Shown: positions 9,454-60,550, counted from the first letter of the stretch. The stretch is 64,000 nt of DNA from Amoebophrya sp. A120 (GCA_905178155.1 CAJINV010000003.1:1545557-1609556); one strand, 5' to 3'. Program-made: numbers and translations. Notes: a model not told the origin generated them from the letters alone.

Positions 9454-12400
9454 ATGCAGGAACACAGAAAAATGCAGCATCCAATCGAAGAAGAAGCTTT
9501 CCACGACTTGGAAACTGAGAGTGACGTCGGGCAGGACAAGCAGAAACACATTTCCGTGCAGCGGTCCGCGCGGGGCCCCCCGCGGCCGCCAATTCCAACT
9601 AGTCCCGCTTTTGTTGAGATGCAGATGCAACCGGTTCCGCACACGCTTTCATCGGGGAAAATGCGGTATCTCGGCCTCCCTGAACAGAAGATGTCAAGGC
9701 CAGCGGCTGTCGTGGAGGAGGCAATAATGGTAAAACCGATCGCCGCGCCACAGCCGCAACCCCGGTTGAGTGCAGTGTCGCCCGGAACTGCACAAGAGCA
9801 GGAGGTGGTGGATGAGGAGGAGATGCATTCTCTAGCCTATCTTCCCGCCGCGGAGCACGTGCCCTACCAGAATCTTTTCGGGAAGGTGCTTTTCGGAAAA
9901 GGGGGCTACTACGGGCCCGCGAACGCAGCAAACGTGCCCCTGGAACGGCGTCTGAAAATCTACATCGCGCTACGCATCTACTACATTCGGCACATCGATT
10001 GTAAGGAAGGGACCTACGAGCTGTCCTTCCGCCAGCTGAGAACCATCCGCAAGCCGCCGGGGATGGAACACGTCCTGCCCCTCCTCCGGGAGCGTGCGAA
10101 ACTGATAGGGGCACGAATGAGCAACGTGCCTCGAAATTCCCATAGTGCATCAACTCAGCAAGTGCCAAGCCCCGCACGAGCCACGACCGAGCGGACCAGC
10201 AATTCGAACGCTGCTTCACCACCTTCCCGCGACCACCACCACCTGGAAGGTGCGGTCGTGGAGAAACTGCAGATCAGGCCTGCTCTGGCATCGTCACCAA
10301 CTGCCGTGAGTAAAGTTGGAGTGGTACTATCAGAACCGAACTTGGTGATCGGAGGGTGCTCCCCGCAACCCAGCCCCGCCGCGCGCTCACACGCTGCGCA
10401 AATGGAAGCGGAAGAGTGGATGCTGCCCACGCGCTACTATCTTTCGCCTTACGCACTGAGGAATGTGCTGCCGTGCGATCTGAAACTGTTGGACCAAGAA
10501 TTTTTGTCAGTTCTACAACCTGTAGCAGAGTACCTTTGACACAAAAATCCATGCGTGAACATAGACGTTGTCGTTGTACTCTGAGCGGACTAAAGAGAGA
10601 CGACCACATGTATGCTTGTGGACCTGCTAAAGAGTGAGCACTCTGCACATGATAATGTCAACTGAAGAATTCTTGTTTTTGTGCATCTCGATGAATATTA
10701 CAAAAATTCTGCTTCCGTCAACCATGATCGTTCCACGACACCTTTTTCCTTTGAATGCAGCGGGGAGCAGCGAGAGTTTTCCGCGGAGATTCCCCTGCCG
10801 CAGGAGCTCGTGTTTTCGAACCGCTTGGACGAGGGCGCGGTCACGTATCCACAAAAAAAGAACCAACCCCATCTTCCGATTTGTCATGCAAAACATGCAT
10901 AAAATCCAGTATTTGTCATGTAAAAAATGGATGGGGATTGATTGTTGTTTCGTTTTGGATATCACGGAAGACGAACCCTTCGTGCACCTCGAGACGGGCG
11001 ACGTGCACCACTTTGTGTACGGCCGCGTGACGCTCGAGCACCAGTACGACATGCGGCAGTTCCCCTTTGACGGCCACAAGCTGCCTGTATGAAATGCAAA
11101 AATGTCTGGGTCTGGAAGATTCTGAGACTTGTCAACATGCATGTTTTGCATGACCCAGGACGACTATAATGCACGCCCTAGCATCACAGATTTTCAGAGG
11201 GCTTCCTGATGCCTACTCCGCATGACAAGCGCTCTCCTCGCGTAGCACAAACTACACTCCTCTTGCTGGTCATGCAATACAGAGCTTCTTAGATTCCGAA
11301 GTTAGCATCACAAGTTCCAACCTTCCAGACCCAGACATTTTTGCATTTGATAGCCTGCGCAGTTGAGCAACTGCTTCTCCGGGGACCAAAGTTTGATGGA
11401 TGTGGTGGTCTACGCGGTGGACTTTGACTATGGATGTGTCAGGATCAAAATCGACAAAATCGAAAAACTTGTGATGCATAAAATGTAGAGCACTGGAGGC
11501 CTGTATTGGGGAGCAGGCATATGAGGCCGAATGTAAGCCTGTGTAGGGGTATGCAATCATGTGCTGCCAGAGTAGCATGACAGGAGGAGTCTTCTTTCCC
11601 CAATCAGCATGATAGACTGGATTTTGGTGCTCCCGAAATTTGTCATGCGCCACTTGAAAGCTGAGGCTTCAACTGACATCGATTTTGTGCATCACAAATT
11701 TTTTGATTTTGGCAATTTCGCTTCTGACACTCCCATATTGACCGCCGCTGTTGCCACGACCCGGAGTGGGACGTGTGCGTGCCGGAGGTGGACCGCAAAG
11801 GGCCCGCGGAAACGGTGATCTACCTGCCGGTGCAGCGCTACCACTTCTACTACACCCTGAACTTCGTCGTCTTCATGTTCTTCCTCAACCTGATCGGGCT
11901 CACCGGGTTCGCGGTGGTATCCCACGAAAAAAGTGTTACAGTTACACATGTGTTGTCAATTCAGCAACACAAATTTTCTCTGCATGAGAGAGAAAACTTG
12001 CAATGCAGAGATCATAAGGGAAAACACGTATGAAATGAGGCTCCTAAGCATTTTGTGCATGACAGAGCTTGTCTCTGTTGCTTGCTCTGCAACACAATGT
12101 GTAACTGTAACAGTTTTTTCTTTGCATAGGTGGCCACCGACGACGTGGCGGACCGGATCGCGATCTCCGCCACGGTATGCATTGCAAATATGTCAGTCTG
12201 GGTCTGGAAGATTGCGAGACTTGTCATGCTGGTGTCTTCGGATTCTATAAAAAATTTGTATTGCATGAGCAGCAAGAGAAGTAGATTTTGTGCTCCGCGG
12301 AGATGGCATTTCTCATGCGGAATAGGGATGAAGAAGCGCTCTAAAAATCTGTGATGCTAGGCCATGCAATACAGGCAATATGGATCATGCAAAATGTGCA

Positions 12401-13023
12401 TGACAGTGACAGATCTTGTTGCATTTCTCCAGACCCAAACATATTTGCAGTTGATACACGGTGGCGCTGGCCGCGATTGCCTACAAGCTGTTCTGCTCCG
12501 ACGTTTTACCGAAGATCAACTACAACACCGCCCTGGACTGGTACATTCTGCTGTCCTTCCTCTGGATCTTTCTCCTGAACAGCTACTTCGCGACGGCGAG
12601 CTCGCACTTCCTGTTCAACTTCGGCGGCGACAGCGCGGCATCGGAGGCGGAGGTGCGAGCGTTCACGAAGGAGGAGGAGCGGGTAGCCTGTGGGTCGCTC
12701 ACCTGCCTCGCCATCGGCATCTTCGCCGGGTGGCCGTTATTTCGGTACTTTGTCGTAAAACGCGACTTATCCAGTGCAAAAGTCTCGTTACTCGTACTCT
12801 ACTAATTGCGTTTATGCATTACAAATCTCTTTACTAAGGCAAATCCGCATTACAAATTGTAATGCTAAGTGAATTTGTAATGCAAGTTAGACTAGTGCGA
12901 TTGCGATACTTTTGCAATGCATATGACTGGGCAGTGGTGGATCCCAACGCCACGGAAGATCCGTACATCCTCTACCTATTCTGCGAAAACGTGTTTTTCT
13001 TGAAGAACATGCTGCGGATGTAG
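9454..13023 (+). CDS. Cys-less pentameric ligand-gated ion channel subunit; 1 probable GT-AG intron (~10506-10760) and 6 introner elements
   Basis: Reconstructed protein contains YDMRQFPFD, PEW, QRYHFYYTLN, M2 DRIAISATVAL, LPKINYNTALDWY and four hydrophobic helices; stop TAG at 13021-13023. Confidence 0.88.
10846..10961. mobile_element. Introner/MITE, 116 bp, direct repeat TCACG
   Basis: tcacg|tatcca...tggata|tcacg; removal gives EGAVT-EDEPF in frame. Confidence 0.88.
11088..11352. mobile_element. Introner/MITE family A, 265 bp, direct repeat GCCTG
   Basis: 31-bp TIR tat(g/c)aaatgcaaaaatgtctgggtctggaag with one mismatch; removal gives FDGHKLPAQLSN. Confidence 0.95.
11429..11737. mobile_element. 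Introner/MITE, 309 bp, direct repeat TTGAC, ~50-bp imperfect TIR
   Basis: ttgac|tatggatgtgtcagg...ctgacactcccata|ttgac; removal gives VDFD-RRCCHDPEW. Confidence 0.92.
11918..12128. mobile_element. Introner/MITE family B, 211 bp, direct repeat GGTGG
   Basis: TIR core tgttacagttacaca / tgtgtaactgtaaca; removal gives GFAVATDDVADR. Confidence 0.95.
12176..12456. mobile_element. Introner/MITE family A in reverse orientation, 281 bp, direct repeat CACGG
   Basis: gtctgggtctgga TIR core; interior resembles the reverse complement of 11088-11352; removal gives ISATVALAAIAY. Confidence 0.93.
12768..12923. mobile_element. Introner/MITE, 156 bp, direct repeat CGACT/TGACT
   Basis: tatccagtgcaaaagtctcg ... 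cgatacttttgcaatgcata; removal gives VKRDWAVV and extends the frame to 13023. Confidence 0.85.
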
Positions 13024-13875
13024 GAACGAGATCCGCAGGAGTTGTTGGATGAGTGACCAGGGATGTAGTTGTGGCCACACGAAGACCACAAGATGAAACT
13101 TGTAAGATGATCTTGTAGAACTACCGTCACCAGCGGTAACTCGAGATGACTGATAGGAGAAGTGCACCATCCATGAGCATGACCAACAGTGCCATGAGCA
13201 TGACCACATTTCGACACTTCTTGAATAAATTAATACCGTTCAAAATGATAGTACTCGTGTCTCGTGTGCCCAGATAGAAAATGTTCCTTCTGTTTTAGTA
13301 CGGAGTACGACTACGTCTCGCTGATTGTTGTTGATGAGTCCACAAGCTAGGCACAAGACTGCCCGTGATCAGAATGATCTTTTTGATCATCATATACCTG
13401 CTTCTTGGTAGTTGCATCAAACGGAATATCGAGAAAACGAGAACGGAGATCAGAATTTAGCTTGAGAGGAATGTGCCTTTTCTTCGTGTGCCCTGTCAGA
13501 AACGGTACATCATATTTAGGATCCTCAGACGAGAAGGAGCTCTGTATAGACAAGTGCCGATGTTCAGGATCTGCTTACCACGACGTACGGGAGTAGGAGC
13601 AGTGCGTCAAGTACAAAAGTGAGCATCTGGATCTCGCATGTTTTTTTACCGTCATGGAAATGCGACGGGCCATTCATGCTTGCATTGAACTTGAAGTACT
13701 AGTAACTTACAACCTTCAACAAACCAGGACTGTATAGGGAGAAGCATTCGACGTCTTAATAGCGTTTCAACAGACTGCTCTTTGAATAAGTACTGATTTT
13801 CTAGACGTAGACCTAAAGGCTCACTGTGCCTTCTTGTTTGATTGAGACCTGTGGTCATCTCCAACCTACCCCACA

Positions 13876-14442
13876 ATGGCTCTCACGCTGGACCGGTCGC
13901 GGTTGCAGGAGATCGAGCGTCTCGCGAACGAAGTGCTCATGGAGCAGGAGGAGCTTCGGGAGCGGATACGACGCGCCGATGGAATACGGCAAGGATTAAA
14001 CGCCTTGACGACGACGGCACACAGCAACGTTTCCAAACTGGACCGCAGCTCCAAGGTGCGGGAGGCAAACGTGTGGCTTTCCACGGGGCTGAGCGACGGC
14101 GACCACTTTGTACGCCTGTCCAAGAAGAGTGCGCGGGAGAAACTGGAGAAGGAGCGCGTGCGCACGCAGACGGAGGAAAAGGAGAAACGGGCAGCGGTGA
14201 AGAAAGCCCTGAAAGAGTTGCACAACAAACACCCGAGCAGCGCGGAAATCGCTCCGGGCGTCCTAGACTTGCTCATTCAACAGGAAGCGGAAGAGAAAAA
14301 GGCCGCGGCGGAAAAAAAGGACCACAGCAGCAGTGCGTCGAAGTCGGCGCAAGGTGTGGTGCGCCGCGACCGCTTGGATTACTCGCAGTGGAACGCCATA
14401 ACGACCTCTGACAGCGAAGATGATGACGATAGCGACATGTAG
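13876..14442 (+). CDS. PDRG1-like prefoldin-beta protein with a C-terminal DYSxW-acidic motif
   Basis: Coiled coil, beta-hairpin (VWLSTG...FVRLS), coiled coil; EIERLANEVL...RQGLNAL resembles PDRG1. Confidence 0.65.
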   Translation: MALTLDRSRLQEIERLANEVLMEQEELRERIRRADGIRQGLNALTTTAHSNVSKLDRSSKVREANVWLSTGLSDGDHFVRLSKKSAREKLEKERVRTQTEEKEKRAAVKKALKELHNKHPSSAEIAPGVLDLLIQQEAEEKKAAAEKKDHSSSASKSAQGVVRRDRLDYSQWNAITTSDSEDDDDSDM

Positions 14443-15220
14443 TGGATACCAGTAGAGCAAACATATGAATTTCAACGTGAAGCAGGTGAACAAACTACGC
14501 GACACAAGTGCTCCAACTACTCATTCCTTCAAGAACCTTGATTTTGAACCATTGGCGTGTATTACTACAAAGCGAAAGCAGGCATAATCTACCTTTCGTC
14601 TGACACAGGCAAAAAGCTGTTTTTTTTGCTTCGACTTGTTGCCAGTGGTGGTACCGGCGAGTGTCCCAACGAAAAAATGAGCCAGCAGTGTGCGGTCGTA
14701 TGAGAACGAGCTGAGACTGGGTCTGCTCGGAGCTGTGCCGGATCTAAATTTCGGTCGTGAGCTCAAGAAGAAAGACGGGAGATCAACAGATAATCGCAGA
14801 TCAGAAAATTCTTGTCAACAAACCAAGTACGAAATAAAGCCAGAGAAGAAATACAAAAACCGTCACGAAGATCACGCGCTCTAAATGGAGAAAACGGTGA
14901 AGTCAAATCGCTCCTGGTCTCGTATTAACTCACAAAGTATCCTCTTCCACTTTAGTTTATTGATGTTTTTCATCGTCTCTATCTCTCCCAGTTCGTACGT
15001 GAGAAAGTAATAACTCTGTACGTAAGTAATAAGGTTGGGCTGTTTATATTCAATTGTCCTTGCGTATTTCTTTCTTTTTGCTCTGCACTTGTTGTTTCAG
15101 TTTCGCCAAAAGACATCAAAATCTGCTTTGCTGAATTGTCCTATTGGGTAAGTTTCGTGGCAGTTCCCAAATCATGACTAGATTTGAGCTGCTGCTCGGT
15201 CTGTTCTCCACTTGGCGATC

Positions 15221-31404: not shown

Positions 31405-31923
31405 AGAAAACACTCAGGTTTCATCGTTTCTCTTGTCCGAGTCCTTTCGGCGTCGTGGCTCGATTCGTAATCGCATCGCCTAATTCTCGTGGTGAATATT
31501 CATGGACGGGTCTTTGCCATCCAACTTCGAAGGCTAGGTGTAGTTGCTTGATATATATGATCGTGAAACAGCGTACCCATCGATGCGGTACTACATCGAA
31601 GCAAGAACGTCAATCGTGGTTCGTGGTCAGCATTTGACGCTCCCGGCAAAAATGCTTTTGAATAACCGTCGTCTCAGTGGGGTCTGTCTCGGTTTAGCAT
31701 GCAAACAAGGAAGATAAAGTACCATTTTCAGATTCACGACCGGTCTAGTGTATTTTTTTTTGAATGTTACAACTCCACGGGGACACCATCATCGACAACT
31801 CAACGGAGACGTCGAACTGTTCTATCGACGGTCCTATTCACTTTCACAAAAGTAGATCGTACGCATACAGTGTCGTAGCGTGCGCCCCGCGACGTCATCC
31901 TCGTACCTTGTTGTTTTCGGACG

Positions 31924-38922: not shown

Positions 38923-41900
38923 ATGGCAGACCGCTCGCGATCCCGTAAGCGCGACCGGAGTCGGGGGCGGCGCGGAGACCGCAGCCGCAGGCGGGACCGA
39001 GACCGCGACAACAAAGACAAAAAAGACCGGGATCGCGAAAGACGGGGGGACGACAAAGACAAGAAGTCTTCGACGCCAGGAAATGCCGCTGCCGTGCCCG
39101 AGAATGCTCAGTCAACAGGTGTCCTCACCCAGTCAACCACTGCCGCCACGGCAGGGGCAGCGAGCGCGTTGCCGGTTAATAATTCCTCTGACAACAAGGC
39201 GGGTGGTGCAGCAGCCGCATCAGCCACAGGTACGAAGGCTGATGCTAGCTCATCTCCCGCAGATGAGGACCAGCACCTCGCGAACGGGAAGGCGTCTGCG
39301 TCCAAAAGCAGCAACGAGGAAGACGCCAAAAAGGACCACGACAAGAAGGACCGGAGTCGGGAACGAAAAGACCGGAAGCGCAGCCGGGATCGAGACCGCA
39401 AGCGCAGTCGCGACCGGGAGCGTGAACGCCGACGCGACAAGGACCGGGATCGGGAGCGACAGACGAAGAAGCGAAAAACCGAGGACGACGACAAGAAGGA
39501 CCACAAGCCGACAACGTCGTCCACCCTACCCTCCAGCGTGCGACCCAAAACGAAGAACGAGGAGCTGATGGCGAAGCTGCGGGCGAAGCAGGCGGCCGCG
39601 GCCCAAAAAGAGACCCCGCTCAGCAGTCCGGGTACGCCCCTCGAGGGGGGCGCAGGAGTGGCAAGCAGCGCAGCGGAGCAGGAGGACGACGACCTACTTC
39701 AGTTCGTGAACGAGATGCTGGAGCAAGAAAAAAAGCAGGAACGGGAAACGAAGATCGTGGAACTGCCCTCCTCCAGCACGGCCGACGCCGCGAAAGTGAT
39801 CACGATGGAGGACATTTTGGCAGGCGACTTCTCCAAGTACGACGAGCTGTACCTGAACACCACGAAGAAGAAGTCCGATGATGTTGAGCCTAAGGTAAAA
39901 ACTGATTCATCATCGCCTACTAGCCTTAAAACTTCTGGCGCCCAGGATGGCGTAGTTGTTGTACAAGAACCTCCCAAAGAACTACCTCCTGCTGGCACGA
40001 CAAGAACATCTGCGAACAATGATGAAACTTCAAAAGCACCAACGGCGGCCGCGCAGCCTTCATCTGGTGCCACGACAGACGCTGGTGGGGCCGCTCCTAT
40101 TCCGGACACGAATAAGACTGCACCTGGTGCCAGTGCGGAATCTGGTGATGTGCCCCAGTCTACTTCCGAACCCCCGGTAGGAAACCCAGCAGCAAAGGAA
40201 GCGAAAGCAGAGGGCGAAGTTGCAAACAAGCCCCCTTCATCAACAGGCGACAGCGCCGTGAGCAAAGACCTCGTCCCACTAAGTCAGAAACTCTCTGAGG
40301 CACAGAGAGCAATCGAAAAAGCCGTCTCCGGGTCCTTTGACGAAAAGGACGTTGCGGTAGCAGGTGCAGGAGCATCCTCATCAAGTAAACCCGCTGACGT
40401 TTCAGCAGAGGCCGGTAACACTAAAGCCAAAGAAACACCAGAAGCAGTTACCGGTGCGGTGAGCAAGGCTTCCTCGCCACTTGTCGCTGCCACTACGAAA
40501 CCTCCACCCCCGCCTACACCAAAACCAATCGTGATCGACCCAGAAATCAAGATTGTAGTCCAAAAAACCGTCGCCGAAGACCGCAAGGAGGAGAAGGAGG
40601 CCAAAGACTTTATGGCCGAGATGGCGAAGTTTCTGGAGAAGAAAAATGTGAGCGCAGCGTCGGTGGACCCGAATTTGCATACCATCCAGGAAGGAAAGCG
40701 CGGGGCGTACATCGAACAGGACGAGGAACTCCAGGAGGACGAGGACGAGGTGGCTGCAGCAGTCAAAGAGGCCGAGCGGCAGTACAACGAGGAACAGGAG
40801 GAGAAACGCAAACTGATAGAGCAGCAGATGCGCATGCCTCTCGCGTACCAGGAGTCCGCCATCGTGGGCCCGCTGCCGCCCACGGCGGAGGAGCTGGCCG
40901 AGATGAAGGAGAAAAAGGAGAAAAAGTTCAACCACGGGGGACAGGCGCAAGTGGTGAACCCCAACAAAATCAACCCCACGGACATCATCGGCAAGTCTTA
41001 CGAAGAGCTGCAGAAAATCTTCACCGCGCGGAAGGAGCTCCCCCGCGTGGACCACAACAAGATCGAGTACCTGAAGTTCGAAAAGGACTTGTACCGCCCC
41101 GTGGCCGAGGTGGTTGCACTGCAGCCACACGAGATCGAGAATCTGCGCAAGGTGCACAACGACATAAAACTCGCGGGCAAGCCGCCGCACCCAGCCCCGG
41201 TGACTACCTTTTACCAGTGCGGCTTTTCCCAGGAGGTACTACAGTTTTTGGAGCGACAAGACATCGAAATGCCGTTTCCCATCCAAATGCAGGCACTGCC
41301 CTGTCTGCTATCCGGCCGGGACGTCATCGCCATCGCCCCTACCGGGAGCGGAAAAACGCTGGCATACATGCTCCCGATGCTCAAGCACATTCAGGCGCAG
41401 CCACCGATCAAATTCGGTGTCGAAGGCCCCATCGGCCTCATTCTCGCCCCCACAAGAGAACTCGCACACCAGATCGTGATTCAGGTACTCAATTACGTAC
41501 TGCTTGTTACATTTTAAGTCCCCAACACCATTCCAAGGTCTTCTATATTCCACGATTGGGATTGATTCCACGGGTTTTACAATAAGATGAAGATGCGTCT
41601 ATCTACAACTCGTAACGACCCCCAACACATGTAAATACAAAATCACAACATCAGGCGAAGAAGGTGTGCGTTCCGGTGAACGTGACCGTGATAGGTGCGA
41701 TCGGTGGTCAGCCGCTCGGCGGGCAACTGTCCGCGTTGCGGCGCGGCTGCGATTTGATCATCGGAACCCCGGGGCGCATGGTCGACGTATTTTCGCTGTC
41801 CAACGGGAACATCACGAACTTGAAGCGGGTGTCCTTCGTTGTCATCGACGAAGCGGATCGCATGTTGGATCAGGGTTTCGGGCCGCAAATTCAGGACTTT

Positions 41901-44900
41901 CTGAACAAGACCCAGCCGAAGAAGCAGCTTTGCATGTTCAGCGCGACCTTTCCGCAGCAAGTGCAGGCGATTGCGAAGAAGTATTTGAAGAAGCCGCTGC
42001 AAATCAAGATCGGCACCGAGGGCGCGGCAGTGGACCGAATCAAGCAAACGGTGGAAATCGTGATGCCGGACAAGAAACTCTTCTCTCTCCTCCGGCTGCT
42101 CGGCCAGTGGGCGCAACACGCATCTATCATCGTCTTCGTCCGCGAACGGAAGGACGCCGAGGCGTTGTTCGCCAAACTGTTGGAGTATCATTACCCCTGC
42201 CTGTTGCTGCACGGCGGTGTCAGCCAGGAAGACCGTGCGTGCGTCATTAAGGACTTTCGCCTCGGCCAAAAGGATCTCGACGCCAAGGCAAATATCCTGC
42301 TGGCGACCGGTGTTGCGGCCCGTGGCCTCGACACCGCTTGCAAATGCGTCATCAACTTTACGGTACTATGTTTTTTCACGCATTTGAAGATCTGGTTTTG
42401 GATTTTTTCCTTTTTGCTTTTCGGATCAGCTGCTTGGTCGTGGTATGCGATACCGATTGCGAAGATGTGAGCTGCACCTCCATCCCTTGCTTGTCGCACT
42501 GTGCTCGCCCAGTTCAGTCGTGTCTGAGAATAGTCTCGTGTTAAGATGATGACTCCTTGATGTACAACGAACTACTCAATATGAAATGAAAACCCCACCA
42601 GGTCCCCAACACGCGGGAGGATTACGTGCAGCAGATAGGGCGCACCGGACGAGCGGGGGCTCGGGGTTGTGCGTACACGTTTCTGGAACCCCGACAGATG
42701 GACAAGGCCCAGATGCTGATTGACGTGTTGAAGTCGTCGAATCAGGTGGTGGACGCCCGGTTGCAGGAGTTGGCGAACTCGTACCAAATGCAGGTGAACA
42801 GCGGCCAGGTAGAACAGGTGAAACAGCACTCCGGGTACGGTGGGCGCGGCTTCAACTTCTCCAAAAAGGAGAAGGGCCAGGAGCAGGCGCGCATGGCCGA
42901 GTACAAAGAGCGGGAGGGCATTGTCGACGACAACATCCGGCGGCAGAAGGAGTTCAAGGAAGGAATCGGCGCGATACACGACGACGACAAGGAACTCGAG
43001 CCGGTGGTGACAGGCCCAGAAACCGCCGCAAGTGGTACCTTTGTCTCCCCTATGGAGTGTAAAAATGTCTGGGTCTGGAAGATTCTGAGATTTGTCATGC
43101 ATGTTTTGCATGACCCAGGAGGTCTGTAATGCACGACCGCGCATCACAGATTTTGAGAGGGCTTCCTGATGCCTACTCCGCATGACAAACGCCCTCCCCG
43201 CGTAGCACAAACTAGACTCCTCTGCTGGTCATGCAATACAGATTTTTCTAGAGTCCAAAGTTAGCATCACAAGTGCCAATCTTCCAGACCCAGACACTTT
43301 TACACCTGATATCCCCCGTGCTCGGCGGGACCGCACAGACAGAAACGACGACACCAGCAGCAGCATATCAAATGTAAAAATGTCCGGGTCTGGAAGAATG
43401 TAACTTGTGATGCGCATTTCAGAACACAGAAAAATCTCTCATGCATAGGCAGCAAAAGCTGCCCAGTTTCTGTCACCAAAATGGGGGATTTGTTATGCGG
43501 ATTTGGCATTGCGGAAGCTTCTCGAAACCTGTGATGCTAGAGCTTCCATGCCAGACCTTCTGTGTCATGCAAAAATAGCATGACTCTTCCAGACCCAGAC
43601 ATTTTTACATTTGATACAGCAGGGGCTGAAACCACTCCGGCTGAGCAGTCTTCTGCAGCAGACGGCGATGAAATAAACGACGAGGAGGGAACTGCTGGGA
43701 CGACCAAGGCCAAGAAAAAGCCGTTCATCAGCAAGAAGGACCTGATTCCCTCTCCAGTGACTAATGAGGGGCCGATGGCTCTGTTCCTGAAAGCGAAGGC
43801 CGAAAAGGAAAAGGCGGCGCAGAACAAGGTGAAGCAAGACAAGGCGAAGGAAGCGACCGAGAGAGCGCAGCAGGCCTTGAAAAAAAAGATGATCGAAGAG
43901 AGGCAGGTCATCTTCACCGGCGGCATGGACGCGGACGCGAAAAAAGCCGCGAAAAACCCACCTCCGGTGTCCGTACCGAAGTCCGGCTCGCCCGTCTCCG
44001 AGTCAGCAAAAGACGACGCCGCTGCTCCGGCCGGGGGGGTGGAACAAGCCGCAAAGGCGAAGGCACCGCCCCCCGCCCCGAAGGCCGCGACGGTTGTGAA
44101 GGAGGAACTCACCGAAGAGGAGATCAAGGAGTGCGAGGAGGAGGCACAGCAGAAGGCCGAAAAGATCGTCGCGGTGCTGAAGCTCACAGACGAGGCGAAG
44201 AAGGAGAAGATGCTGAAGGAGAAGTACGACCACGCCCTCAAGATCGCGCTGGAGGCGAAGAAGAAAAAGAAGCTGAAATTCATCGCCCCCGCCGGCCAGA
44301 AGCCCAAGGGCCCGCCCCCCAAAGCCAAGCCCACCGCGATGCAGGCGGGAGGCGCCTTCTTCGTGCCCGCCGGGCAGCAGGAGCTCCAGGGTGCGGTGGC
44401 GAGCAAGGCCAAGGTGCCGATTCTTGCCGGTTGGAACACGCTGGTCGGGGCGGTGCCGGTAGCGGGCACCACCAAAATGATCGAGACCTGCAAAGACGGC
44501 ACGCTACGCATTGCAAATGGTTGAATCCGGGTCTGGAAAAATGACAAATAGAAATTTCTTATTGCAGACTCCAACTCATGAAAGTTAAAGTTGTGACACT
44601 TTTTGAGAGCAGACGTTGTGATGTGTATAGTTGTGCAAGAAGAGACACGTATTGGCATTAATACATGCAACTGAGTGGCTTCATGCACATTGGCATTTTT
44701 CCGCAACAGGAGCAGCACCATTTGCATGTGCGAGCTAAAACAAGTCGTCTAAACTAGCCAGTATGTAGTATGAGAAGCCTTGCAAGTAGAATTTTCTCAC
44801 GAAGACCTGGATCGACGATGTTTGCACTCGATAGCCGCTGATCCACTACGACTCGTTGGAGATCAACATGTACCCCGAATTTGCGCGGCGCGAGATCAGT

Positions 44901-45185
44901 CGGCGCGAGCTGAAGGAGAACATCGAGGAGATGACCGGGTGCAAGCTGCTGGTGAAGGGGCGGTATTTCCCGCCGGACGAGCCCAACCCGGGCAACGAGC
45001 GAAGGTTGTACGTGGAAATTTCCGGGCCGACCACCTCCGCGGTGGCAACCGGGAAAAAAACGGTGCGGGACACCATGGAGGAGAACGCCAAGCGCACGCT
45101 CAACTTGGGCCACCACGCCCACATGATTCTGGGCAACATGGGCCGCCGGTACGATCCCAGAACCGGCACTTTCACCGACAAATAA
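38923..45185 (+). CDS. PRP5: Spliceosomal DEAD-box helicase Prp5/DDX46; GT-AG introns 41485-41654 and 42363-42601 plus 3 introners
   Basis: RD/RS-rich N-terminus; APTGSGKT, PTRELA, TPGR, DEAD, SAT, ARGLD, GRTGRAG; GYGGRGF; C-terminal LEINMYPEFARR...KGRYFPP...LYVEISG. Confidence 0.88.
43051..43311. mobile_element. Introner/MITE family A, 261 bp, direct repeat TCCCC
   Basis: Closely similar to 11088-11352 in the same orientation; removal gives FVSPVLGG. Confidence 0.95.
43366..43616. mobile_element. Introner/MITE with A-type TIR, 251 bp, direct repeat CAGCA
   Basis: tatcaaatgtaaaaatgtc(c/t)gggtctggaag TIR; removal gives PAAAGAETT. Confidence 0.95.
44505..44833. mobile_element. Older introner, 329 bp, degenerate repeat CACGC/GCCGC
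   Basis: Decayed A-type TIR; removal of element + 5 nt gives KDGTLIHYDSLEIN in frame. Confidence 0.8.
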
Positions 45186-46625: not shown

Positions 46626-48826
46626 ATGCCGGCCATGCAAGCGGGAGTCGACTATGAGAAAAAGGAGGATGCGCCGTACCAGCCCGACCTTCCAACGGTA
46701 AAAACCGAAAAGGCGTACAAAAATCTCGTTTTCCTGAACACCCCGGCCGCGCGGAACATACGGATACAATGTGAATTCCAAGAGCCCGGCTGTCGACTGC
46801 TCGAGGAGGTTCATTATAGATACCCGGTTTTTTTTCCAAATTACTTTCGAATCTCGCATCTATTCGGTCCTCTAGTTGATTGCGCATACACGTAGGGATT
46901 GTGCGCAAAATTCCTCACTTTGTTTCAAAAGTCCGGACACATCATGTTCATCGATCTAGACAACCTACTTCTCACATCACCAGGAAGTGCACAACATTGT
47001 CATGTTTTTCGGTAGCGCGCGGGCCAAATCTCGCGAGGAGTTCGAACGCGCGTTGGAAACCGCCGAGCCCGGGAGCCCGGAGCGGGATAAGCTTTTGCGG
47101 ACCGAGTTTATGGTGAAATTCTACGAGGGTATTCGCACTCTGACCGAAAAGTTTAGCGACTGGAACCACCAACGCGTCCACGATGGAAAGGGAAGATACG
47201 TCGTCGGTACCGGGGGCGGGCCGGGCATGATGCAAGCCGCAAACGAGGGCGCGTACCGGGCCGAGGCACCCAGCGTTGGATTCGGAATCTCTCTCCCCTT
47301 CGAAACAGGACTCAATCCGTACAGATCTATTTCCCTTCACTTGTTGATTTGAAAATTGACGTTAATGCTGTTTCTTGTACTATGCTATCACCGTCCTTGC
47401 TGCAACTGCAAATGATAATTCGTCAAAATGCATTATCGTCATCAAGATCAAATTCAAAGTGAACCTCGGGAACAAGTCCCTATAACAAGGCCGCTAGTGC
47501 GGTACCACCATATGCAAAACATGTGCAGCACAACAAGATGAACAGAGAAACACCGAACAACAGGTACGTATCCCCCCCGCTAGCGTTCGAGTTTCACTAT
47601 TTCTTTACGCGTAAGTTTTGGATGGCGTACAAGATCTGCGGGTTGGTGTGTGCCCCCGGAGGGTTCGGCACCCTCGACGAGTTGTTTGAGATCCTGACCT
47701 ATCAACTGCAAATATGTCTGGGTCTGGAAGATTGCAAGATTTGTCATGCTAGTCTGGCATGACTCTTGCTCTTCACTCTGTATTGCGTGGCCACGAACAG
47801 CCTGTCTCGCCTGTCATGCAAAAACGCAGTTTCTCATTCGGAATGCGTAGCGCAGAAGCACGAAAAAACTTGCCATGCTTGGCTGCGCATTACAGTTCAC
47901 TCGTTGTTCACTGACTTGCATCACAAGTTTCCAGACCCAGACATATTTGCATTTGATATGACCCTGAAGCAAACCGGGCGGATCAAAAGACCCATTATCA
48001 GAAGAAAGAAGTGTTACAGTTACACATTGTGTTGCAAGCCCAGCATGAGAGACAACCTCTGTGATGCCAGAAATGCTTCCGAGCTTCATTTCATACGTGT
48101 TTTCCCTTACGATCTGTGCATTGCAAGTTTTCCCTCTCATGCAGAGAAAATTTGTGTTGCTGAAGTTACATCAAATGTGTAACTGTAACACTTTTTTCTT
48201 GTGATACCCATCCCGATCATTTTGTTCGGAAAATCGTACTGGGAGGGCATACTCAACTTCCAGGCGATGTGCGATCATGGGATGATTTCCCAGGACGACG
48301 TCAATTCGCTCTTCCTCACCGACGACGCCGATGAAGCTCTCAAGTTCCTCTGTCAGAGCTTGGAAGACGTACTTTTACAGAAAATGTTTTACCTGGCACG
48401 ATACTGGATGATTGATTTGTTCTTCAAATGTCTGGCCGGCATCGCTCTTCAAGTGGACCAAACCACATGTTGGTGTGTGTAAAAATGCACTACCTATGCC
48501 AAATACGTAACTCTATCTCTAACAGAATCTAAATCCTAAAATAATCGCAGGTCGAAGCCGATTTTGAGAGTCAGGGATCCCCGTTTCTGGCGCCCATGCG
48601 GGACAGCCAGGGCGGTTACGTGCACGACGCCATGGGCCGCATGCGCCGGCAGAGCGGGGAACAGGCTCGGAGTCCCGAACTCTCTCCGCAGACGGACACC
48701 AATAGTCCCGGAGGTGGCGGAAGCCAGCCCGAGTTCCAGATGGTGCAAGGCCAGCAGGGCAGCGGGGGTCAGGGCGCAGAGAAGAAGAAACCCAGCGGCA
48801 ACAAACCCACCGAGAGTGTGATATAA
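46626..48826 (+). CDS. LOG-family (so-called lysine decarboxylase-like) nucleotide phosphoribohydrolase; GT-AG introns 46809-46983, 47319-47563, 48369-48550 plus 2 introners
   Basis: [61 protein letters not shown]. Confidence 0.92.
47700..47958. mobile_element. Introner/MITE with A-type TIR, 259 bp, direct repeat TGACC
   Basis: tgacc|tatcaactgcaaatatgtctgggtctggaa...catatttgcatttgata|tgacc. Confidence 0.95.
47996..48206. mobile_element. Introner/MITE family B in reverse orientation, 211 bp, direct repeat CCCAT
   Basis: Same length as 11918-12128 and its interior is the reverse complement; removal gives [11 protein letters not shown]. Confidence 0.95.
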
Positions 48827-52486: not shown

Positions 52487-53761
52487 ATGATCGTTGATCG
52501 GTTTCCTGAGTTTCGGCAGTATGCGCGGGAGGCTGGCATCGAGACGACGTCGATGGAGGAGCTTCGGGCCAGGCATCAGCAAAATGCCAACTCTATGCAA
52601 GCATTGCAGCTATGATGTTGTACTTAGTCTGGGTCTGGAAGTTTTCTGCAAGTTGTCGTGCGAAAATTTGATGATCATGCATGAAGATGAACGCCAAGAT
52701 GAGCTGCCCGCTTCTTCCTCAGGAGAAGGCGGATTTCTCATGCGAGATAGGCATGAGGGACGTCTCGCGAAATCTGTGACGCTTTTGTGTGCATTCCAGC
52801 CCATGCGTGTGGTCCGTGAGATGCAGGATGAATCGCGTAAAGGGTTCTTCTTCGAGACCCAGACATATACCAACTAAATTTGCACTACATAAACTCCCCC
52901 GACGCCTCAAAGGACCCGAGCGCGAGCAGCAAGAAAGCCGCGGATGACCCGATGCGCGAGTTCTTCGAGCACGTGCGCGCGATCCAGGATCGCATCGCGG
53001 ACGCACGCAGGAGCACGGACCTGATTCAGCAGTACACGGAGGACTTCCTCGTGGCCACCAGCACCGCGCTCGAGACGAAGGCACAGCAGAACTCCGAGGA
53101 GGAGGCATCCAGGACGAACAAAGTGCTGCAGGAAGCGAAGCACATGCTGGAAGATTTGAAAAACCCGCCGGACGGAGCAAAGGGAAATAAAACCAAGAAG
53201 GTGAACTCGAAGATACGGCAAAACATGTGCAACAGCCTCGCGAAAAAGCTGCAACAGGAGGTGCTGCAGTTTCAGCAGGCGCAGTCGAACTTCACGAAGG
53301 AAATCAAGGCGAAGACGGCGCGCCAGTTGCAAATCACGTGTCCGGAGGCGAGCCTCGAAGAGATCGACACCATGATCCAAAACGGCGAGACCCGGGACAC
53401 GCAGGTGCAGCGGCAGATGGCGGGCAGCCACGCGGTGCTGCTGGAAAACCTGCAGCAGGTACACGACAAGTACCGCGCCATACGAAGGTTGGAGCGGTCG
53501 ATGGCCGAGCTCCACCAGATGTTTCTGGATATGGCCCAGTTGATCGAGCACCAGGGCGAGATCCTCGACGTAATCGAGGTGAACGTGGCAAAAACCAAGG
53601 ACTACACGACACAAGCCGAAAAGGAGCTGATCACAGCGAGGAAAGGCCAGTTCACGGCACAACGCCGCATGTGCTGCATAACGGTCGTTATGCTCATCAT
53701 CGTGGCAATCATCATCTTCCCGATTCTGTTTGCCCCCTCAGCCGGGGGAGGATTTAGATGA
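52487..53761 (+). CDS. Qa-SNARE syntaxin (plasma-membrane, syntaxin-1-like) with one introner
   Basis: N-peptide MIVDRFPEF joins in frame after excision; Habc helices, SNARE motif LHQMFLDMAQLIEHQGEILDVIE, C-terminal TM helix. Confidence 0.92.
52594..52891. mobile_element. Introner/MITE, family A-like, reverse orientation, 298 bp, direct repeat AACTC
   Basis: aactc|tatg...gtctgggtctggaag...gagacccagac...cata|aactc; removal gives QNANSPDAS. Confidence 0.9.
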
Positions 53762-54588: not shown

Positions 54589-57341
54589 ATGACTAGAACT
54601 GAAATTGATCTCTTAAGTACTCTGGACTTGCGCGGTGCGCGACCGAGTAAGGAACGGGTGGAGCAGCTCACAACGTCCCCGGTCGTCAGTAACTACCCCG
54701 CGAAGTTCTGGCCTTTCGATGGGGCTCCGCACATGTGGGGACCGGGCGAGGTCTGGGTCCGACTAGGAAAGGGCGCCTCCTCGTGTGCGGCTGCGCAGGA
54801 GTGCCGAAGGACGCTCGACGCAGGCAGGCCGCTCGATGTGGCGCGCGTCGTTGCAGAAAAGGACCCGCAGATCGCGAAGGCCCTGGCGGTGTTGAAGAGC
54901 AAACCGGAATGGTACAGCGACGCGGACGGGTTTGCAGAGGAGGCGAACTTGGGCAATGTCTTGGAGGAGTTGAAAAAGCAGGACTGTGTGCCGGAGTGGC
55001 TGGACTCCCGGCAAAAGCTTGGCACCTTCTGGCCGGAGTTGTCAGTCAAGCCGGGGCGTTTGTGGGTAGTTAAGAATTGTCAAATGACTACCGAAAAAGA
55101 CAATGACGCACTGGGAGAAGTTGCCGCGTTGCTTACGCTCATCGACGGGAAGGCAACCTGGGCACTCGCGCCGCGCGGCCCCATTGTGCCGGTAGGCATG
55201 ACGGACACAGTGACGCGCCACTCCATCGGTCTATACCGCCGCTGCCGCTTCATCGGAAATGTGCCGGCCCACCTGGTCCGCGACAATTGCATCTGCACGA
55301 GCCAGAGACTTAACAAGCAGGCGGCGCTGCGGCTCTTCGAGCAGTTACCCCTCTGGTGGGGCTTTCGGGACAAAAAGGAGCACTCTGACAATTGGGACGA
55401 CTACCATGCTGAAGTGAAGAAAATGAAGGAGCGAACCGGCGCTGCCGGGCCCGTCCGCGCTGATAATCCGGAGAGAACTCTGGTCCTGCCGCTACCAGCA
55501 GAAGTCGAGGAGGCCCTCCAGTCCCGCAGCCTGGAGAAGCAATACAGTGATGTGCTCCGTGAATTCGCCACCTTTTTCACGACCGGAAAAGTTAAAGTCG
55601 CGAAGCGGGCGAACATCTTGAACGAAGCGGACAAAGAGAAAGCGCGAGAGGGTGGGAAGAAAAACCACAAGTCGGGAACACCACAGGCGATAACGATTGG
55701 AGCGACCACCTACCGCCAGTCTTATGCGGGTGTGCTTAGTAAGTTTTCACGGCCGCTGCGGGGGCAATACCTCTCGAGGATGGTGGTAGAACTGCACAGA
55801 AAGGTTTGCAGCGTGTACGAGACGCCAGCCGGAGCCACGTCTTCTTCCTCCTCATCCGCCGCTGCCCGACCGGTCTCAGCCAAGATGAAGCGCCCAGCCG
55901 CAGAGGCGCCAGCCGAAAACGGTGAAGGCGCGCCAGGTCGTGCGCTTGGCACTGATGCGCTCTGGACCAGCTGCACAGTCAACTACGACGTCACAACCAT
56001 TCTCCACCGGGATTCGAATAATTGCCGAGGGTTATACTCTATCAAACGCAGAAGTGTCTGGGTCTGGAAAGCAACTTCTGATGCGCGTCTTGCGTCCCTG
56101 AAAAATCTGTGTCACATAAGCAGAAAGAATGCCAGCGTTTTCATGCTGCAACGCAGTGTTTAGTGCGTACTAGACATCAATCTATGACTATGAGAAAGAT
56201 CGATAAAAACGCGTCATGCTTAGCAGTACTTCGAAGTGGAAGTGGTTGTTCAATTGTCCAGAGTTCAGCATCACAAGTTTCCAGACCAAGACATATTTGC
56301 ACTTGATGCGCCCTCTTGTCCTTGCTCTAGGAACTTTTCAAACAGGAGGTCGATTATTCGTCCAAGATGAGGACGTGGCGCGCAGCAACCCTCCGAGGCG
56401 CTTGGACGGCAAAGAAGCAAGCGGCGCACCCGGGCACTTTCACTGTACACAGACAGGGAAGAAGGTCAGCGGATTTTTTTTCGACGTGAAACAAAACCCA
56501 CTGCTATTTTGGGGCGGTGTGCGGCACGGTATTTACTTATTTACCGCTGTCGTTTTTCGGCGTCGAGTATTCATCCGCATATCCTAACTGATCACGATGT
56601 GTAGGCGCATACGTAAGATTTCAGAGGCGAAGTAGCGAAAAGCGAGCAACTCGTTGCGTCTGCCTAGCGGTAGTGCATTCTCCTCTGCATATTATCAACT
56701 GAAAAACACATACAGTCGCAGCAAACATCAAATGTAAAACGAAAATGTAATGATCAGGTACAGAACCGTACACGGGGGGAAGTCGCATGGCGTTTGTCTT
56801 TTTCTCGCATTCCAACATCTACCGCGTTTCCAATCCCGCACAGGAAGGTTTGCGCGATGCTTTGCTGGAGGATCTCTCCGCGCTCGGAATTCCGGCCCCC
56901 ACGCCACAGCAAGTCGAGGATGCGGCAGCCAGACACCTGGATAGCACCAGTAAGACCAGCAACAAGCGTGCAAAGGTCCTCACGAAAAAAAGAGACGAAG
57001 CTGCAACCACGACCACGAGTGCAGAGCCAGATGCAGCTGTCCCCGACCATCCAGACGGAGAACATGAAAACTTTGATGAAGATCGCCGAGATCCCACGAT
57101 TGAGAAGTTTGGAGACGTTGCAGACGATGTCGGCGACATGTACATGGGATTCGTTGCTAGCGGGTTCATACAAATGTGTGACGAGCGACGCAGGGCGCGG
57201 GCTGTCGAAGGAGAAGATGGGAAGTCCAGCAGCAGTAGCAGTGGGCGAAACATGCTCGCAGATGACAAAATTAGTCGACAAACGTCCAAAGCGTCCAGTA
57301 CATCGGATCCCTCTTCCAAGACAAACGCGAAAGCAAAGTAG
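54589..57341 (+). CDS. TET/JBP-like 2OG-Fe(II) dioxygenase; one introner and GT-AG intron 56529-56757
   Basis: Reconstructed WTSCTVNYDVTTILHRDSNN...LALGTFQTGGRLFV...LLFWGGVRHGTEPYTGGSRMAFVFF supplies HxD, distal H and the 2OG-binding R. Confidence 0.75.
56040..56308. mobile_element. Introner with A-type TIR and decayed direct repeat (TACTC/CGCCC)
   Basis: tatcaaacgcagaagtgtctgggtctggaaa ... tttccagaccaagacatatttgcacttgatg; removal of element + 5 nt keeps the frame. Confidence 0.85.
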
Positions 57342-57760
57342 ATGCCTATTCCGTTGTGCGATGCCATCGATTTGAAAACAGAAACTCCTACAACACGAAC
57401 AAGTCGCCTCGGCCGCAACAAATATTTACTTGCTCGCCTCGCGTTGCAACGCTTGCGCTGCTACTGCTTCTGCTCGCTCTTTTTTTTTCTGTTCTTGTAG
57501 ATGTAGTTCGTCTTCGTATGTGTTTCGTGTGTGTTGTGAACTATTCGCCAAATTGTCTTCATCAGCTCGTGACTCATGTTAGAGCTCGTTGTTATTCCAT
57601 ATCCACGCACAACTTGCGATTGAGTCTTTTCCCTCGTTTAATATTATACCGACATTCAAATTACATTTACTTTCTTCTGCACCAGACAAGTAGTTCGTTG
57701 TCGCAGAAATTTTCGTTGGGTTTTCCCTGTTTACAACATGCATCTCTGCTTTTGTACACA

Positions 57761-60550
57761 ATGACGGAGTCCGGCGGATCTAGTTCTTCCAAGTCCTCGT
57801 TTGCGCACGTGCGTTCACTAACGGCGGGAGGTCGTCCACCCTCGGAGCAGCTTCTACATGCAGCCGGATCATCAGGAGCTGCAAACGGAGCGGCTGCAAC
57901 AAGCAGCACTGGAAGCACGACCGGCCCCAGTTCTCTTACTTCTGGTATTTTTTCATCTCCCAGCACGACTGATCCAGCGGCCACCGCACCTTCCGGAATT
58001 ACTAGTTCAACTGCTCCCGCAACAACCGCGGTAGAGGCTAATATTGCTGCCGGGGATCTTCATGCCACCACCACGACCGCAGCGGCCTCGTCCATGCTTG
58101 CGAGCGCGTATGATTCCATTACGGAAACGTACCACAGTGCCGTGAACGCAGTTTCTGGCCTCAGTCCTTTCTCCTCGGACAGCGCCGCGGAAAATGGGAG
58201 CGCCGCGGGCGGGTTTCTTACTGGCGGAATCATTCAAAGCATGGCGGAAGCCGCCGCTTACACCGGGGACCGCATTACGCAGGCCGCTTTTTCACCTCTG
58301 TTCCTGGTGATGGCGACCAGTTTTGCGCTTTCCTCGATGAGCCATTTGGCGTATCGGACTCCACAGCACCCCCCCCTTATGCGGTTAGAAGGCATGAGCA
58401 GCAACATAGAAATATAGGACGGCACCAGAGCAAGAAAAAGAACGTAGCTCATGGTAAGTACGCGTGACACACAAAACTTCATGTGTGGCACCAGTGCATT
58501 TTTGCATGGTTTTGTCACCACGCAACATCGAGCTAAGAGGTAACACCAACTCCAAGGCCAAGGGCTGGAGTTGCTCATTTGCATCACAAACTATTGCAGG
58601 GGAGGAGACGCTGCGCACTGTCATAGGGCGTTGCTATACCAATCGCGGAAGGCCAATCGCATCATCACCGGTTTTTATCAGGCCGTAGTCGGCGAGTCGT
58701 GTATCTTCCAGAACAACGTGCCATTCGGTGATTTTGAAGCACGGCTGGAAACGTTGCTGGTGATACTGCGAGGACTACTGGACGAGTATGTAAGCGTTGG
58801 AAAAAAAGTAGCGCGCTTCTACGTGTTGGACGGACAAAGCTCTTTTGTTCGGTACGTGAACGGAAAGAACAAGATGCGGAGAAGTTGTGCGGAAGAAGAT
58901 CAAGGACAGGGCGTTGGTCAAGCCTTTCCCCTGGGACCACAAGCTGAGTTATTCGCGCGAGACGAAGCAGATTTCGAGGACGTACTGGAGGAGGTTCGCA
59001 TCTGGCGCAACGATCATTTCCTAGGTTTTAACGGCTTTGCTACTCCGAGACCTTTTGCGTTGGATCCACGAAGCTCGCCGGACATGACCAAGAGGAAGCA
59101 AACTGCAGGGTCCAGCAAGCCGTTCGAATACAATTATGAAAATGCTCATGAGCTGCAAGGAGCTCCTTCGGGTTCGGAAACAGATGCAGCTCCTGCTGTG
59201 CCCCAGGAAGGCCTCGTGGTGTTTTACTTTTCCAACTCCGCGAGCACTGTGATCGAACCGACAGCGTACACGCCAACATCGCTCGGCGCGGATTTTTGGA
59301 GAGACAATGGAGCAGCGGCTCCTGCTGCAAGTATCCCGACATCTGCGGTGTCCACCCCTGCTGGTGCTGCCGGTGGACTACATGCAGGAGCCACATCTTC
59401 TCAGTTAGAAGCTGGCTCCGAAACAAGCCGGGTGTTTCTTTTTGATCATTTACTGGGCCCTTTTCATGTAGAGGGAAATAATGCTGCGCAGCGCAATATG
59501 GTTACGTTGGGCGGCGAGATTCTGTTGGGTTCCAACACGAGCGGCACTTTTCGCAACATCAGCTTTCGGAATCCGCCTTTGGTTCCACCCGAGAAACAAC
59601 AGCCAGCATCCTCATCGGAGGAGGTCGCGGAGCAGCAGCTGCATGGCGGCGCAGGCGAGGGACTTGGTGTGGATGCGGAAGTGCAACATCGCAGCCTGCA
59701 GTTTGTGGACCGAACGAATACTGAAGCCAAGGCAGCGCAGGCCACCTCCCAGCCACCTAGACCGGCAACTCCTCCAGCTGCAGCTCAAGAACTTCGATCA
59801 CCTGGTCCTCGTGGTGGCACAGCCGTGGCGACGCTGCAAAGCAGCCGAGGTGCTCTGCGCTACGAAACTACAGGAGGTAGTACTACTTCCCCGTCAGACG
59901 ACCACGTGGCCTCCGCTCCTACTTACGTCGAGTTTTCCCGCAGTTGCGAAGTTTTCCGCGCCTCTCCGTATTACCCGTACCTGGCTGGCCGCGGGGCATC
60001 CACCGCGCAGCGCGCAACCTCAAAACAGCGAGAAAAGTTTCTGCGCGTCAGCTCTGTGTACCCAACAACGACGAGGGGACGGAACAAGCATGAGGTGGAC
60101 TTCTTCGGTCGCCAAGTTGTCACGGCTAGGGACGCAGGCGAGCCAATAAACGGAAGAGGACCACCGTCGGCCGGCGGCTACTTCCTCGAGTCCGCACTCT
60201 CCTTCATCGAGTCCAGTGCGGAGCGAATGGTGTCCGGCCTTTTCCGTCGGGCGGAACAGCAGGAGGATCACCCCGAATTGCTGCAAAACGTCTCAACTCT
60301 GTCCCCACATGGTACAACAACCCACACCGCGCAAAATCGCGCCGTGATTCCGCTCTTGAAACGCCAGGTCGCAGGGTCGGACCCACTGATCCACCGCTCT
60401 TTGCCACGACAGTGGTCCGGATCCTCTGTCGAAGGGGGAGTGCAGTTCGAGGAACCCGCGCCCGCAGTACCGCCCAGAGTGCTTCAGGCAGCTGGCGTTG
60501 GTGGACCACAGCCGCATCACGCCAAGGCGTTTAAACAGCAGAAAAAGTAA
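57761..60550 (+). CDS. Hypothetical protein with one hydrophobic segment, interrupted by an old introner
   Basis: Two long ORFs join as SMSHLA-LLYQSRK after excision. Confidence 0.7.
58352..58625. mobile_element. Degenerate introner, 274 bp, repeat TGGCG/GGGCG
   Basis: TA termini, weak TIR, internal gcatcaca motif, frame restored. Confidence 0.75.

Follow-up and report, generated by a model that had tools for sequence, protein, structure and literature searches.

The closest described relatives of the elements analysed here are the introners of Amoebophrya sp. A120, whose introns are to about two thirds non-canonical, with RNA-seq support (Farhat et al. 2021, PMC7789003). According to that account, the inverted repeats of A120 introners start with TAT, followed by seven looser bases and an A-run, their mean length is about 240 nt, and direct repeats of 3-5 nt lie at the borders, with a 5-bp example in the legend of Fig. 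S19; the available parts leave the border position and the mechanism of removal open (PMC7789003). Here we analyse a 64,000-nt stretch of the A120 genome (GCA_905178155.1, CAJINV010000003.1:1545557-1609556), hereafter the window, in which fifteen transposon-like elements interrupt protein-coding genes. An earlier note on this DNA had pointed out fourteen of them and likened them to Amoebophrya introners; the TAT inverted repeats, the direct repeats and the matching proteins, which are named Amoebophrya sp. A120, go beyond a likeness and place them in that very class, already known and from apparently the same organism. In all 15 window cases the length removed equals the element plus one copy of its 5-bp direct repeat. 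Removal very probably occurs at the RNA level, and we give a probability of roughly one in two to splicing by a relaxed major spliceosome.

Compared with the A120 introners there is no difference in kind: TAT-A-run inverted repeats, border repeats, borders other than GT-AG and repeated families are shared, the published repeats being variable and the published borders unknown (PMC7789003). What is added is that a single 5-bp duplication fits all families, that the removed length is fixed and that the register of the junction is narrowed. Gozashti et al. (2025) class A120 introners mostly as "TIR DNA, family unknown", TIR standing for terminal inverted repeat (PMC12130899; 21/58 A120 rows of Dataset S2), with family lengths of about 150, 210, 260 and 305 nt, as in the window, and with an integrase-like open reading frame between the TIRs of one family; the duplications called automatically in that study measure 2-5 bp, and the origins it assigns to the splice sites conflict (PMC12130899). 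The nonconventional introns of euglenids share an origin akin to miniature inverted-repeat transposable elements (MITEs), a terminal stem, free border dinucleotides, fixed spacers and coexistence with GT-AG introns; Euglena, however, needs CAG/CTG motifs and gives circular excision products, and neither motif is found in the window elements (PMC12501133, PMC11282704). The euglenid signature N3-CDG ... CHG-N5-6 is likewise absent from their TATS...SATA ends, as judged from the end patterns without a formal scan. The tunicate Fritillaria borealis shares transposon-derived introns with TIRs and a duplication, handled by an adapted major spliceosome (PMC13326754, PMC11282704), but it prefers the borders AG-AC and AG-AT and keeps U1 (PMC13326754); in A120 no U1 was found (PMC7789003), and the borders show no such preference.

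The window was scanned for 5-bp direct repeats flanking TA-bounded inverted repeats, with five shuffles as control (elements are numbered as in Table 1). The exact-repeat scan yielded nine elements with scores of 19-56, against best shuffled scores of 10-15, and a relaxed scan clearly added element 6 (score 40); elements 12 (score 23) and 9 (score 22) lay within the shuffled range of 21-25, not significant by score alone, and elements 13 and 14 were located by direct reading of the sequence. A library of 254 related copies, described below, matches elements 12 (E-value 1e-9), 13 (8e-12), 9 (0.004) and 14 (0.003). The earlier count of fourteen thus stands, the 5-bp repeat being exact in ten and decayed in four. 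Their layout of direct repeats around TA-bounded TIRs was also as described, except that the conserved terminus is more precisely TATS...SATA than a bare TA. Deletion of the element plus 5 nt leaves the frame open in 14/14, in agreement with the earlier note, and retention brings 1-10 in-frame stops in every one. All fourteen fold better than their shuffles (z-scores from -1.9 to -10.5, 25 shuffles per element), and terminal pairing is weak in elements 12 and 14. Element 15, found through a match to the library, lies in a minus-strand gene at 6903-8418, where deleting the element plus 5 nt opens a frame of 426 residues and deleting it plus 3, 4, 6 or 7 nt gives at most 257; no Pfam match was obtained for the 426-residue frame. 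An Rfam search of the window and a search of viral contigs with the TIR pattern each gave 0 matches.

The removed length was confirmed at eight junctions by orthologues and bacterial homologues. P0001 and P0003, both proteins named Amoebophrya sp. A120, are 100% identical to an exon of gene A (which hosts elements 1-6) and to the exon at 54589-56037, respectively. P0001 agrees with the product computed in our script at 241/241 residues over five junctions, P0003 matches the product across the junction of element 13, the distant orthologue P0002 is gap-free over junctions 1-5, with versions one residue longer or shorter excluded, and over element 9 the alignment with P0005, an orthologue of Prp5, stays collinear. 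The models of P0001 and P0003, which lack six elements, were derived from transcripts (canonical predictors failed) and thus give RNA evidence of an indirect kind, open to reverse-transcriptase artefacts. Independent of any transcript is the motif spacing in the LOG-family gene: after removal of elements 10 and 11 it measures 34 residues, as in 16/40 bacterial homologues (22/40 fall in a group with a spacing of 36, one has 33 and one was unscored), and the (5,5) deletion scores best among 36 in-frame deletion pairs.

Sliding the junction yields a seamless GT-AG register only at element 4, so that the earlier claim for most elements extends to 13 of the 14. Some in-frame GT-AG pair lies within 20 nt of nine elements, and none near the other five. 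The use of such cryptic sites, which the earlier note had named as refuting, was checked through homologue lengths, which rule out the GT-AG alternatives wherever testable, notably at element 2, where an in-frame GTAT...ATAG alternative (11087-11353, one residue more) is available and P0001 and P0002 show the seamless length instead. There remains element 14, whose in-frame GT-AG alternative at 58351-58626 adds one residue; its removal as such an intron is possible. A T-to-G difference in the downstream repeat of element 14 creates this intron, and the change possibly represents a route from a non-canonical to a canonical intron. For elements 7, 8 and 12 the evidence is the restored frame, because 7996 candidates yielded no homologue of the low-complexity Prp5 exon.

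These results bear on the view that no real removal takes place, either because template switches or mis-annotation hide dead genes or because nearby cryptic GT-AG sites are used. A hairpin with a direct repeat is the classical substrate of reverse-transcriptase template switching, and the in-frame pairs near nine elements, together with the alternative at element 14, would suit cryptic splicing. Five elements have no such pair, however, the alternatives are excluded at eight junctions, and the reading frames of the host genes are unbroken and conserved (in the Prp5 helicase core, for instance, identity is 77%), which supports live genes; with about two thirds of A120 introns non-canonical (PMC7789003), and with the coding-like flanks and the synonymous excess reported below, we regard this view as highly unlikely.

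Related copies were collected from one other assembly, in 169 loci (445 kb after merging) fetched by the end pattern of the main family; selecting loci by an exact match to the end of a single family favours young copies. Oriented analyses cover 172-234 of 341-379 copies, those with a confident strand and a repeat matching at 3/5 or more. Inverted repeats alone identified 341 elements, among which an exact 5-bp repeat flanks 254 and a 6-10-bp repeat none, and the shuffled control gave a single hit over 316,652 bases in all. The 254 copies fall into 27 clusters, mostly of 110-325 nt, with a median nearest-neighbour identity of 86%, and the window elements match related loci at 79-93%. TAT starts all 12 family end patterns and an A-run is present in ten. 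When the frames of the two flanks were inferred separately, they called for five retained bases in 63/71 confident cases (98/124 under the loosest filter). The elements are short non-coding copies of DNA transposons that end in TAT...ATA and are flanked by a target-site duplication of 5 bp, and with their TIRs, fixed-length duplication and lack of coding capacity they have the features of MITEs. One uniform 5-bp duplication fits all families, and insertion occurred in both orientations in every larger one (48:23 in the largest, p 0.004; 15:22; 16:15). Flanks are coding-like in 177/253 copies, compared with 230/600 random sites, which also speaks against an artefact.

The copies show no selection for GT or AG. 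A seamless GT-AG is possible in 13/171 oriented copies and any G(T/C/A)-AG in 19/171, so that their borders are not those of major U2-type introns (GT-AG or GC-AG), and no base preference in the duplication, whether for GT, AG or any base, survives 68 tests. The introners of Micromonas and Aureococcus share the geometry, with one splice site from the element and the other from the duplication, but they need GY-AG and only some insertions survive (PMC11282704). The IS3EU/GingerRoot elements share TA..TA termini, and an integrase-like DDE enzyme would be expected by that comparison; their duplication is usually 6 bp (PMC10045372), a length that was not found here. Four long TAT...ATA elements (631-1209 nt) are flanked by exact 5-bp repeats, and their inner cargo is unrelated. 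No Pfam match above the cut-off was found in 23 frames of the four longest copies, nor a cognate autonomous element in the 445 kb of related loci.

The earlier note had left open whether removal acts on RNA or on DNA. Published RNA-seq and selection across the junctions make RNA very probable; the DNA level is much less likely. Precise DNA excision, programmed or spontaneous, by a transposase cut with repair between the repeats, as for the internal eliminated sequences of ciliates, would yield exactly the pre-insertion DNA, and the TA-type termini, with a conserved terminal triplet and a degenerate spacer, resemble transposase sites. The elements are nevertheless present in two independent DNA assemblies, that of the window and that of the related loci, and the copies are old, as their median identity indicates, an age that they could not reach in a single nucleus under repeated excision. 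The definition of the elements as RNA-seq junctions against DNA also counts against excision (PMC7789003). A germline/soma split is not known in this organism, which points the same way; we consider DNA excision very improbable. No related locus overlaps the window genes, and the empty state was seen at the protein level only, not as an empty orthologous DNA site.

The role of the direct repeat was assessed from the mismatches between its two copies. These are synonymous in 32/62 cases, with 27-30% expected if both copies were free; "both copies free" is rejected (p at most 0.0004), as is "both coding" (p at most 0.05), while "one coding, one free" is compatible with the counts (p 0.04-0.37). 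The synonymous excess reflects selection on the protein across the junction, a further point against an artefact. The two copies differ at 5.7-6.6% of sites and the element interiors at 6.0%, and the repeats of elements 13 and 15, matching at 2/5 positions, still need exactly 5 nt removed. Because the repeats decay at the neutral rate and the poorly matched sites still lose five bases, the direct repeat is a scar that is not kept for recognition: what persists is the spacing rather than the match, and the guiding role that the earlier note had given to the repeat is not supported. The same data bear on RNA joining by micro-homology between the repeats, with a floating junction. The constant loss of element plus one repeat in 15/15 cases would follow from it, and a perfect repeat is kept in 272/350 family-anchored copies with TA ends, but the neutral divergence, the unchanged length at 2/5-matching repeats and the rejection of "both coding" make such joining improbable. 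Terminal triplets differ at 2.1-2.6%, compared with the 6.0% of interiors; part of the interior figure stems from differences inherited between subfamilies (private rate about 3.6%), so that the contrast does not demonstrate post-insertion selection.

Where exactly the cut falls cannot be placed between identical repeats, so the decayed ones were used to locate it; registers are given as the last base of the upstream repeat that is kept. At element 13, the Tyr-Ser of P0003 is encoded only if the upstream repeat is kept as far as the fourth base (register 4-6); support for the serine comes from the gene model and from the motifs of 2OG oxygenases. At element 9 the upstream repeat encodes Thr, as in P0005, and the downstream repeat Pro (register 2-6), so that P0005 favours keeping at least the first two upstream bases. 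Because these two decayed cases keep the upstream repeat, the cut appears to lie at or next to the 5' TAT of the element. In register 4 the intron would start N-T-A-T-S, resembling the local GTAY donor: the five canonical introns inspected in the window (three supported by alignment to homologues, two by the reading frame) have GTAC or GTAT donors, and their 3' ends are A-rich without a pyrimidine tract. The nine commonest non-canonical donors of A120 are all NT (Table S4, PMC7789003). A likelihood built on codon usage and the measured mutation spectrum, over 28 non-synonymous mismatches, puts registers 4-5 ahead of 0 by 1.8-2.8 log units, a weak preference. Element ends vary mostly at the third base on the 5' side (TAC, TAG) and at the last base on the 3' side (ATG, ATC; Fisher p 0.035, 17 changes). 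The first base of the duplication is at the third codon position in 107/217 copies (p 4e-6), with 39% predicted from the target composition, a bias which amounts to a phase-0 intron excess if the register is 4 (or 1).

Two other introns were noted alongside. The canonical intron at 41485-41654 has a 5-nt repeat, TCAGG, over both junctions, in the geometry of register 4. In gene A a 312-nt intron at about 10449-10760 has no inverted repeats and, when read in the register fitting P0002, no GT donor; several registers tie, including T-TAC...CAG (TT-AG), and it is possibly an old element, or possibly a GT-AG intron that adds three residues.

Taken together, the reading we favour at about even odds is that the elements are spliced from the RNA by a relaxed form of the major spliceosome, which would use an N-TAT donor without U1 and an acceptor positioned by the stem. 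Insertion is of the cut-and-paste type: the element enters in either orientation, shows little preference for sequence and creates a 5-bp duplication; its transposase was not found and is presumably integrase-like. The element plus 5 nt is then lost with the protein unchanged, as seen at the protein level and, for RNA, in the published RNA-seq, and this loss depends neither on the border dinucleotides nor on orientation nor on a match between the repeats. The 5' cut would fall one base before TAT, where N-T-A-T-S may mimic the G-T-A-Y donor with its first base free; the inverted repeats would fold and bring the 3' end near, and the 3' cut would fall four bases past ATA at any dinucleotide. As both inverted repeats would carry symmetric signals, any insertion could be spliced and families could spread through coding DNA, the direct repeat being the scar that makes the geometry seamless, itself unrecognised. 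We favour a relaxed spliceosome because of the analogy with Fritillaria and because the A120 spliceosome is otherwise complete, 83/89 spliceosomal proteins and U2, U4, U5 and U6 having been found, and U1 and the minor spliceosome not (PMC7789003); in a tunicate the major spliceosome has adapted to transposon-derived non-canonical introns (PMC11282704, PMC13326754). Low levels of the U6 m6A43 mark favour a uridine at position +4 (PMC13326754).

Several points weigh against this reading. The sense stems show no G-U excess over A-C among their mismatches (161 vs 155), so that selection on an RNA stem is unsupported; both orientations occur and reveal no strand-specific branch signal; and with a stable stem in place, neither splice site would be accessible to the small nuclear RNAs. 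A G at donor position +1 is not enriched (53 observed, 51 expected), nor is GT-AG. Support for the register comes from two cases in the window and from weak statistics, the gene model of P0003 was made automatically, the residue at element 9 is not invariant, being Gln in the further homologue P0004, and a simple count of A/T polarity opposes the register at repeat position 3 (7 vs 2). The annotated A120 junction registers look partly aligner-driven and are classed inconsistently across families (Dataset S2, PMC12130899), which weakens the donor argument from Table S4, and the authors of the A120 study view the removal mechanism as distinct (PMC7789003). A branch point with a pyrimidine tract in the 3' inverted repeat (RAC followed by TTTT) was considered and rejected: canonical introns here are A-rich at the 3' end, and the motif is explained equally well as a transposase site.

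The free terminal dinucleotides, the two orientations and the fixed total overhang of 5 nt would also fit a stem-plus-ruler code, read by a separate RNA machine, non-spliceosomal or a second spliceosome, that recognises the inverted-repeat stem and fixed spacers and releases a circular or linear RNA, as proposed for Euglena. The code tested there combines a stem with two spacers, the 5' one short and the 3' one longer, and with a purine that follows the junction (PMC12501133), and euglenid introns are released as circles (PMC11282704); under register 4 the first base of the 3' exon is a purine in 108/168 copies, with about 93 expected, a difference not significant after multiple testing. The failure to find U1 in A120 (PMC7789003) and the better-than-shuffled folding of all 14 elements point the same way. 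No such factor has been identified, however, the CAG/CTG motif of Euglena is absent from the element ends, the sense stem lacks a G-U excess, the 5' end resembles local GTAY donors in the register that we favour, and the weakly paired elements 12 and 14 still need to be removed; we hold a separate machine to be possible, if on the unlikely side. In a particular form, which we think rather doubtful, a second splicing system with spliceosome-independent chemistry would read the transposon inverted repeats in RNA, its 5-nt stagger mirroring the DNA stagger of the transposase, and would erase from the message any insertion, of any sequence and in either orientation; its factor is possibly a domesticated transposase-like protein.

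The window is eukaryotic, with a GC content of 52% and long frames in the standard code, almost all of which lie on the plus strand, and the genes are co-oriented as published for A120; coordinates are collected in Table 1. The host genes named in the earlier note were recognised again, the Prp5/DDX46-like helicase by its DEAD, Helicase_C and KH domains, and the syntaxin. Atlas features and structure suggest, as a lead only, a 2OG-Fe(II)/Tet-JBP-like domain in P0003, for which no relatives were found in viral contigs, phages or the PDB. The LOG-family gene closely resembles bacterial genes, at 36-43% over the first exon. Clustering of elements is strong, with six within about 900 coding bases of gene A (10846-12923) and none in the open frames at 1953-5927 (4.0 kb), 15188-21013 (5.8 kb) and 31879-36801 (4.9 kb). 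Dispersed repeats outside the TAT family lie upstream of genes, of 47 nt at 709-755, 6774-6820 and 9357-9403 and of 62 nt at 850-911 and 9487-9548.

Table 1. Elements, canonical introns and host genes of the window, and long elements of the related loci (L handles, locus coordinates)
Feature	Position	Strand	Description
Element 1	10846..10961	+	116 nt; repeat TCACG/TCACG; ion-channel-like gene A; P0002 gap-free over junction
Element 2	11088..11352	+	265 nt; main TGTCTGGGTCTGGAA family; repeat GCCTG
Element 3	11429..11737	+	309 nt; repeat TTGAC; gene A
Element 4	11918..12128	+	211 nt; repeat GGTGG; sole seamless GT-AG register (11914-12129)
Element 5	12176..12456	+	281 nt; repeat CACGG; gene A
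Element 6	12768..12923	+	156 nt; decayed repeat CGACT/TGACT, difference synonymous; gene A
Element 7	43051..43311	+	261 nt; repeat TCCCC; Prp5-like helicase; about 90% like element 2
Element 8	43366..43616	+	251 nt; repeat CAGCA; Prp5-like helicase
Element 9	44505..44833	+	329 nt; starts TAC; decayed repeat CACGC/GCCGC; Prp5-like helicase
Element 10	47700..47958	+	259 nt; repeat TGACC; LOG-family gene
Element 11	47996..48206	+	211 nt; repeat CCCAT; LOG-family gene; 88% like element 4, opposite orientation
Element 12	52594..52891	+	298 nt; repeat AACTC; syntaxin
Element 13	56040..56308	+	269 nt; ends ATG; decayed repeat TACTC/CGCCC; P0003 gene
Element 14	58352..58625	+	274 nt; decayed repeat TGGCG/GGGCG; host gene 57761..60550
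Element 15	7523..7752	-	230 nt; TAT...ATA; repeat GTCTT/ACCTC in gene sense (2/5 match)
Canonical intron	41485-41654		donor GTAC or GTAT
Canonical intron	42363-42601		donor GTAC or GTAT
Canonical intron	47319-47562		donor GTAC or GTAT
Canonical intron	48368-48550		donor GTAC or GTAT
Canonical intron	56529-56757		donor GTAC or GTAT
Host gene A	9568..13022	+	six elements; weak Neur_chan_memb match (E-value 0.003, below cut-off)
Prp5/DDX46-like DEAD-box helicase	38923..45185	+	three elements, two GT-AG introns; DEAD, Helicase_C, KH
LOG-family gene (cytokinin riboside monophosphate phosphoribohydrolase-like)	46984..48367 (exons examined)	+	two elements
Syntaxin	52487..53761	+	one element
P0003 gene	54589..57341	+	one element, one GT-AG intron; 2OG-Fe(II)/Tet-JBP-like domain (lead only)
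Host gene, family unassigned	57761..60550	+	one element
Long element	L024:505-1608		exact 5-bp repeats
Long element	L071:3862-4492		exact 5-bp repeats
Long element	L034:632-1465		exact 5-bp repeats
Long element	L032:433-1641		exact 5-bp repeats

The class is a published one, and our literature search found no paper that resolves how the tens of thousands of A120 introns without GT-AG are removed, in keeping with the earlier statement that the mechanism is unsettled. What this study provides is a sharper rule, in which the removed length is fixed and the junction is predicted one base before TAT and four after ATA, together with sites where differing repeats show which copy is kept and a case, element 2, where a canonical GT-AG is available and apparently ignored. 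If the spliceosome is responsible, the finding bears on how far the chemistry of splice sites may be loosened in the absence of U1; should another machine be responsible, it would be a sequence-independent system of RNA cutting and joining that makes transposon insertions harmless. In either case the host is a marine parasite of plankton in which these insertions would break coding genes unless they were cut out exactly.

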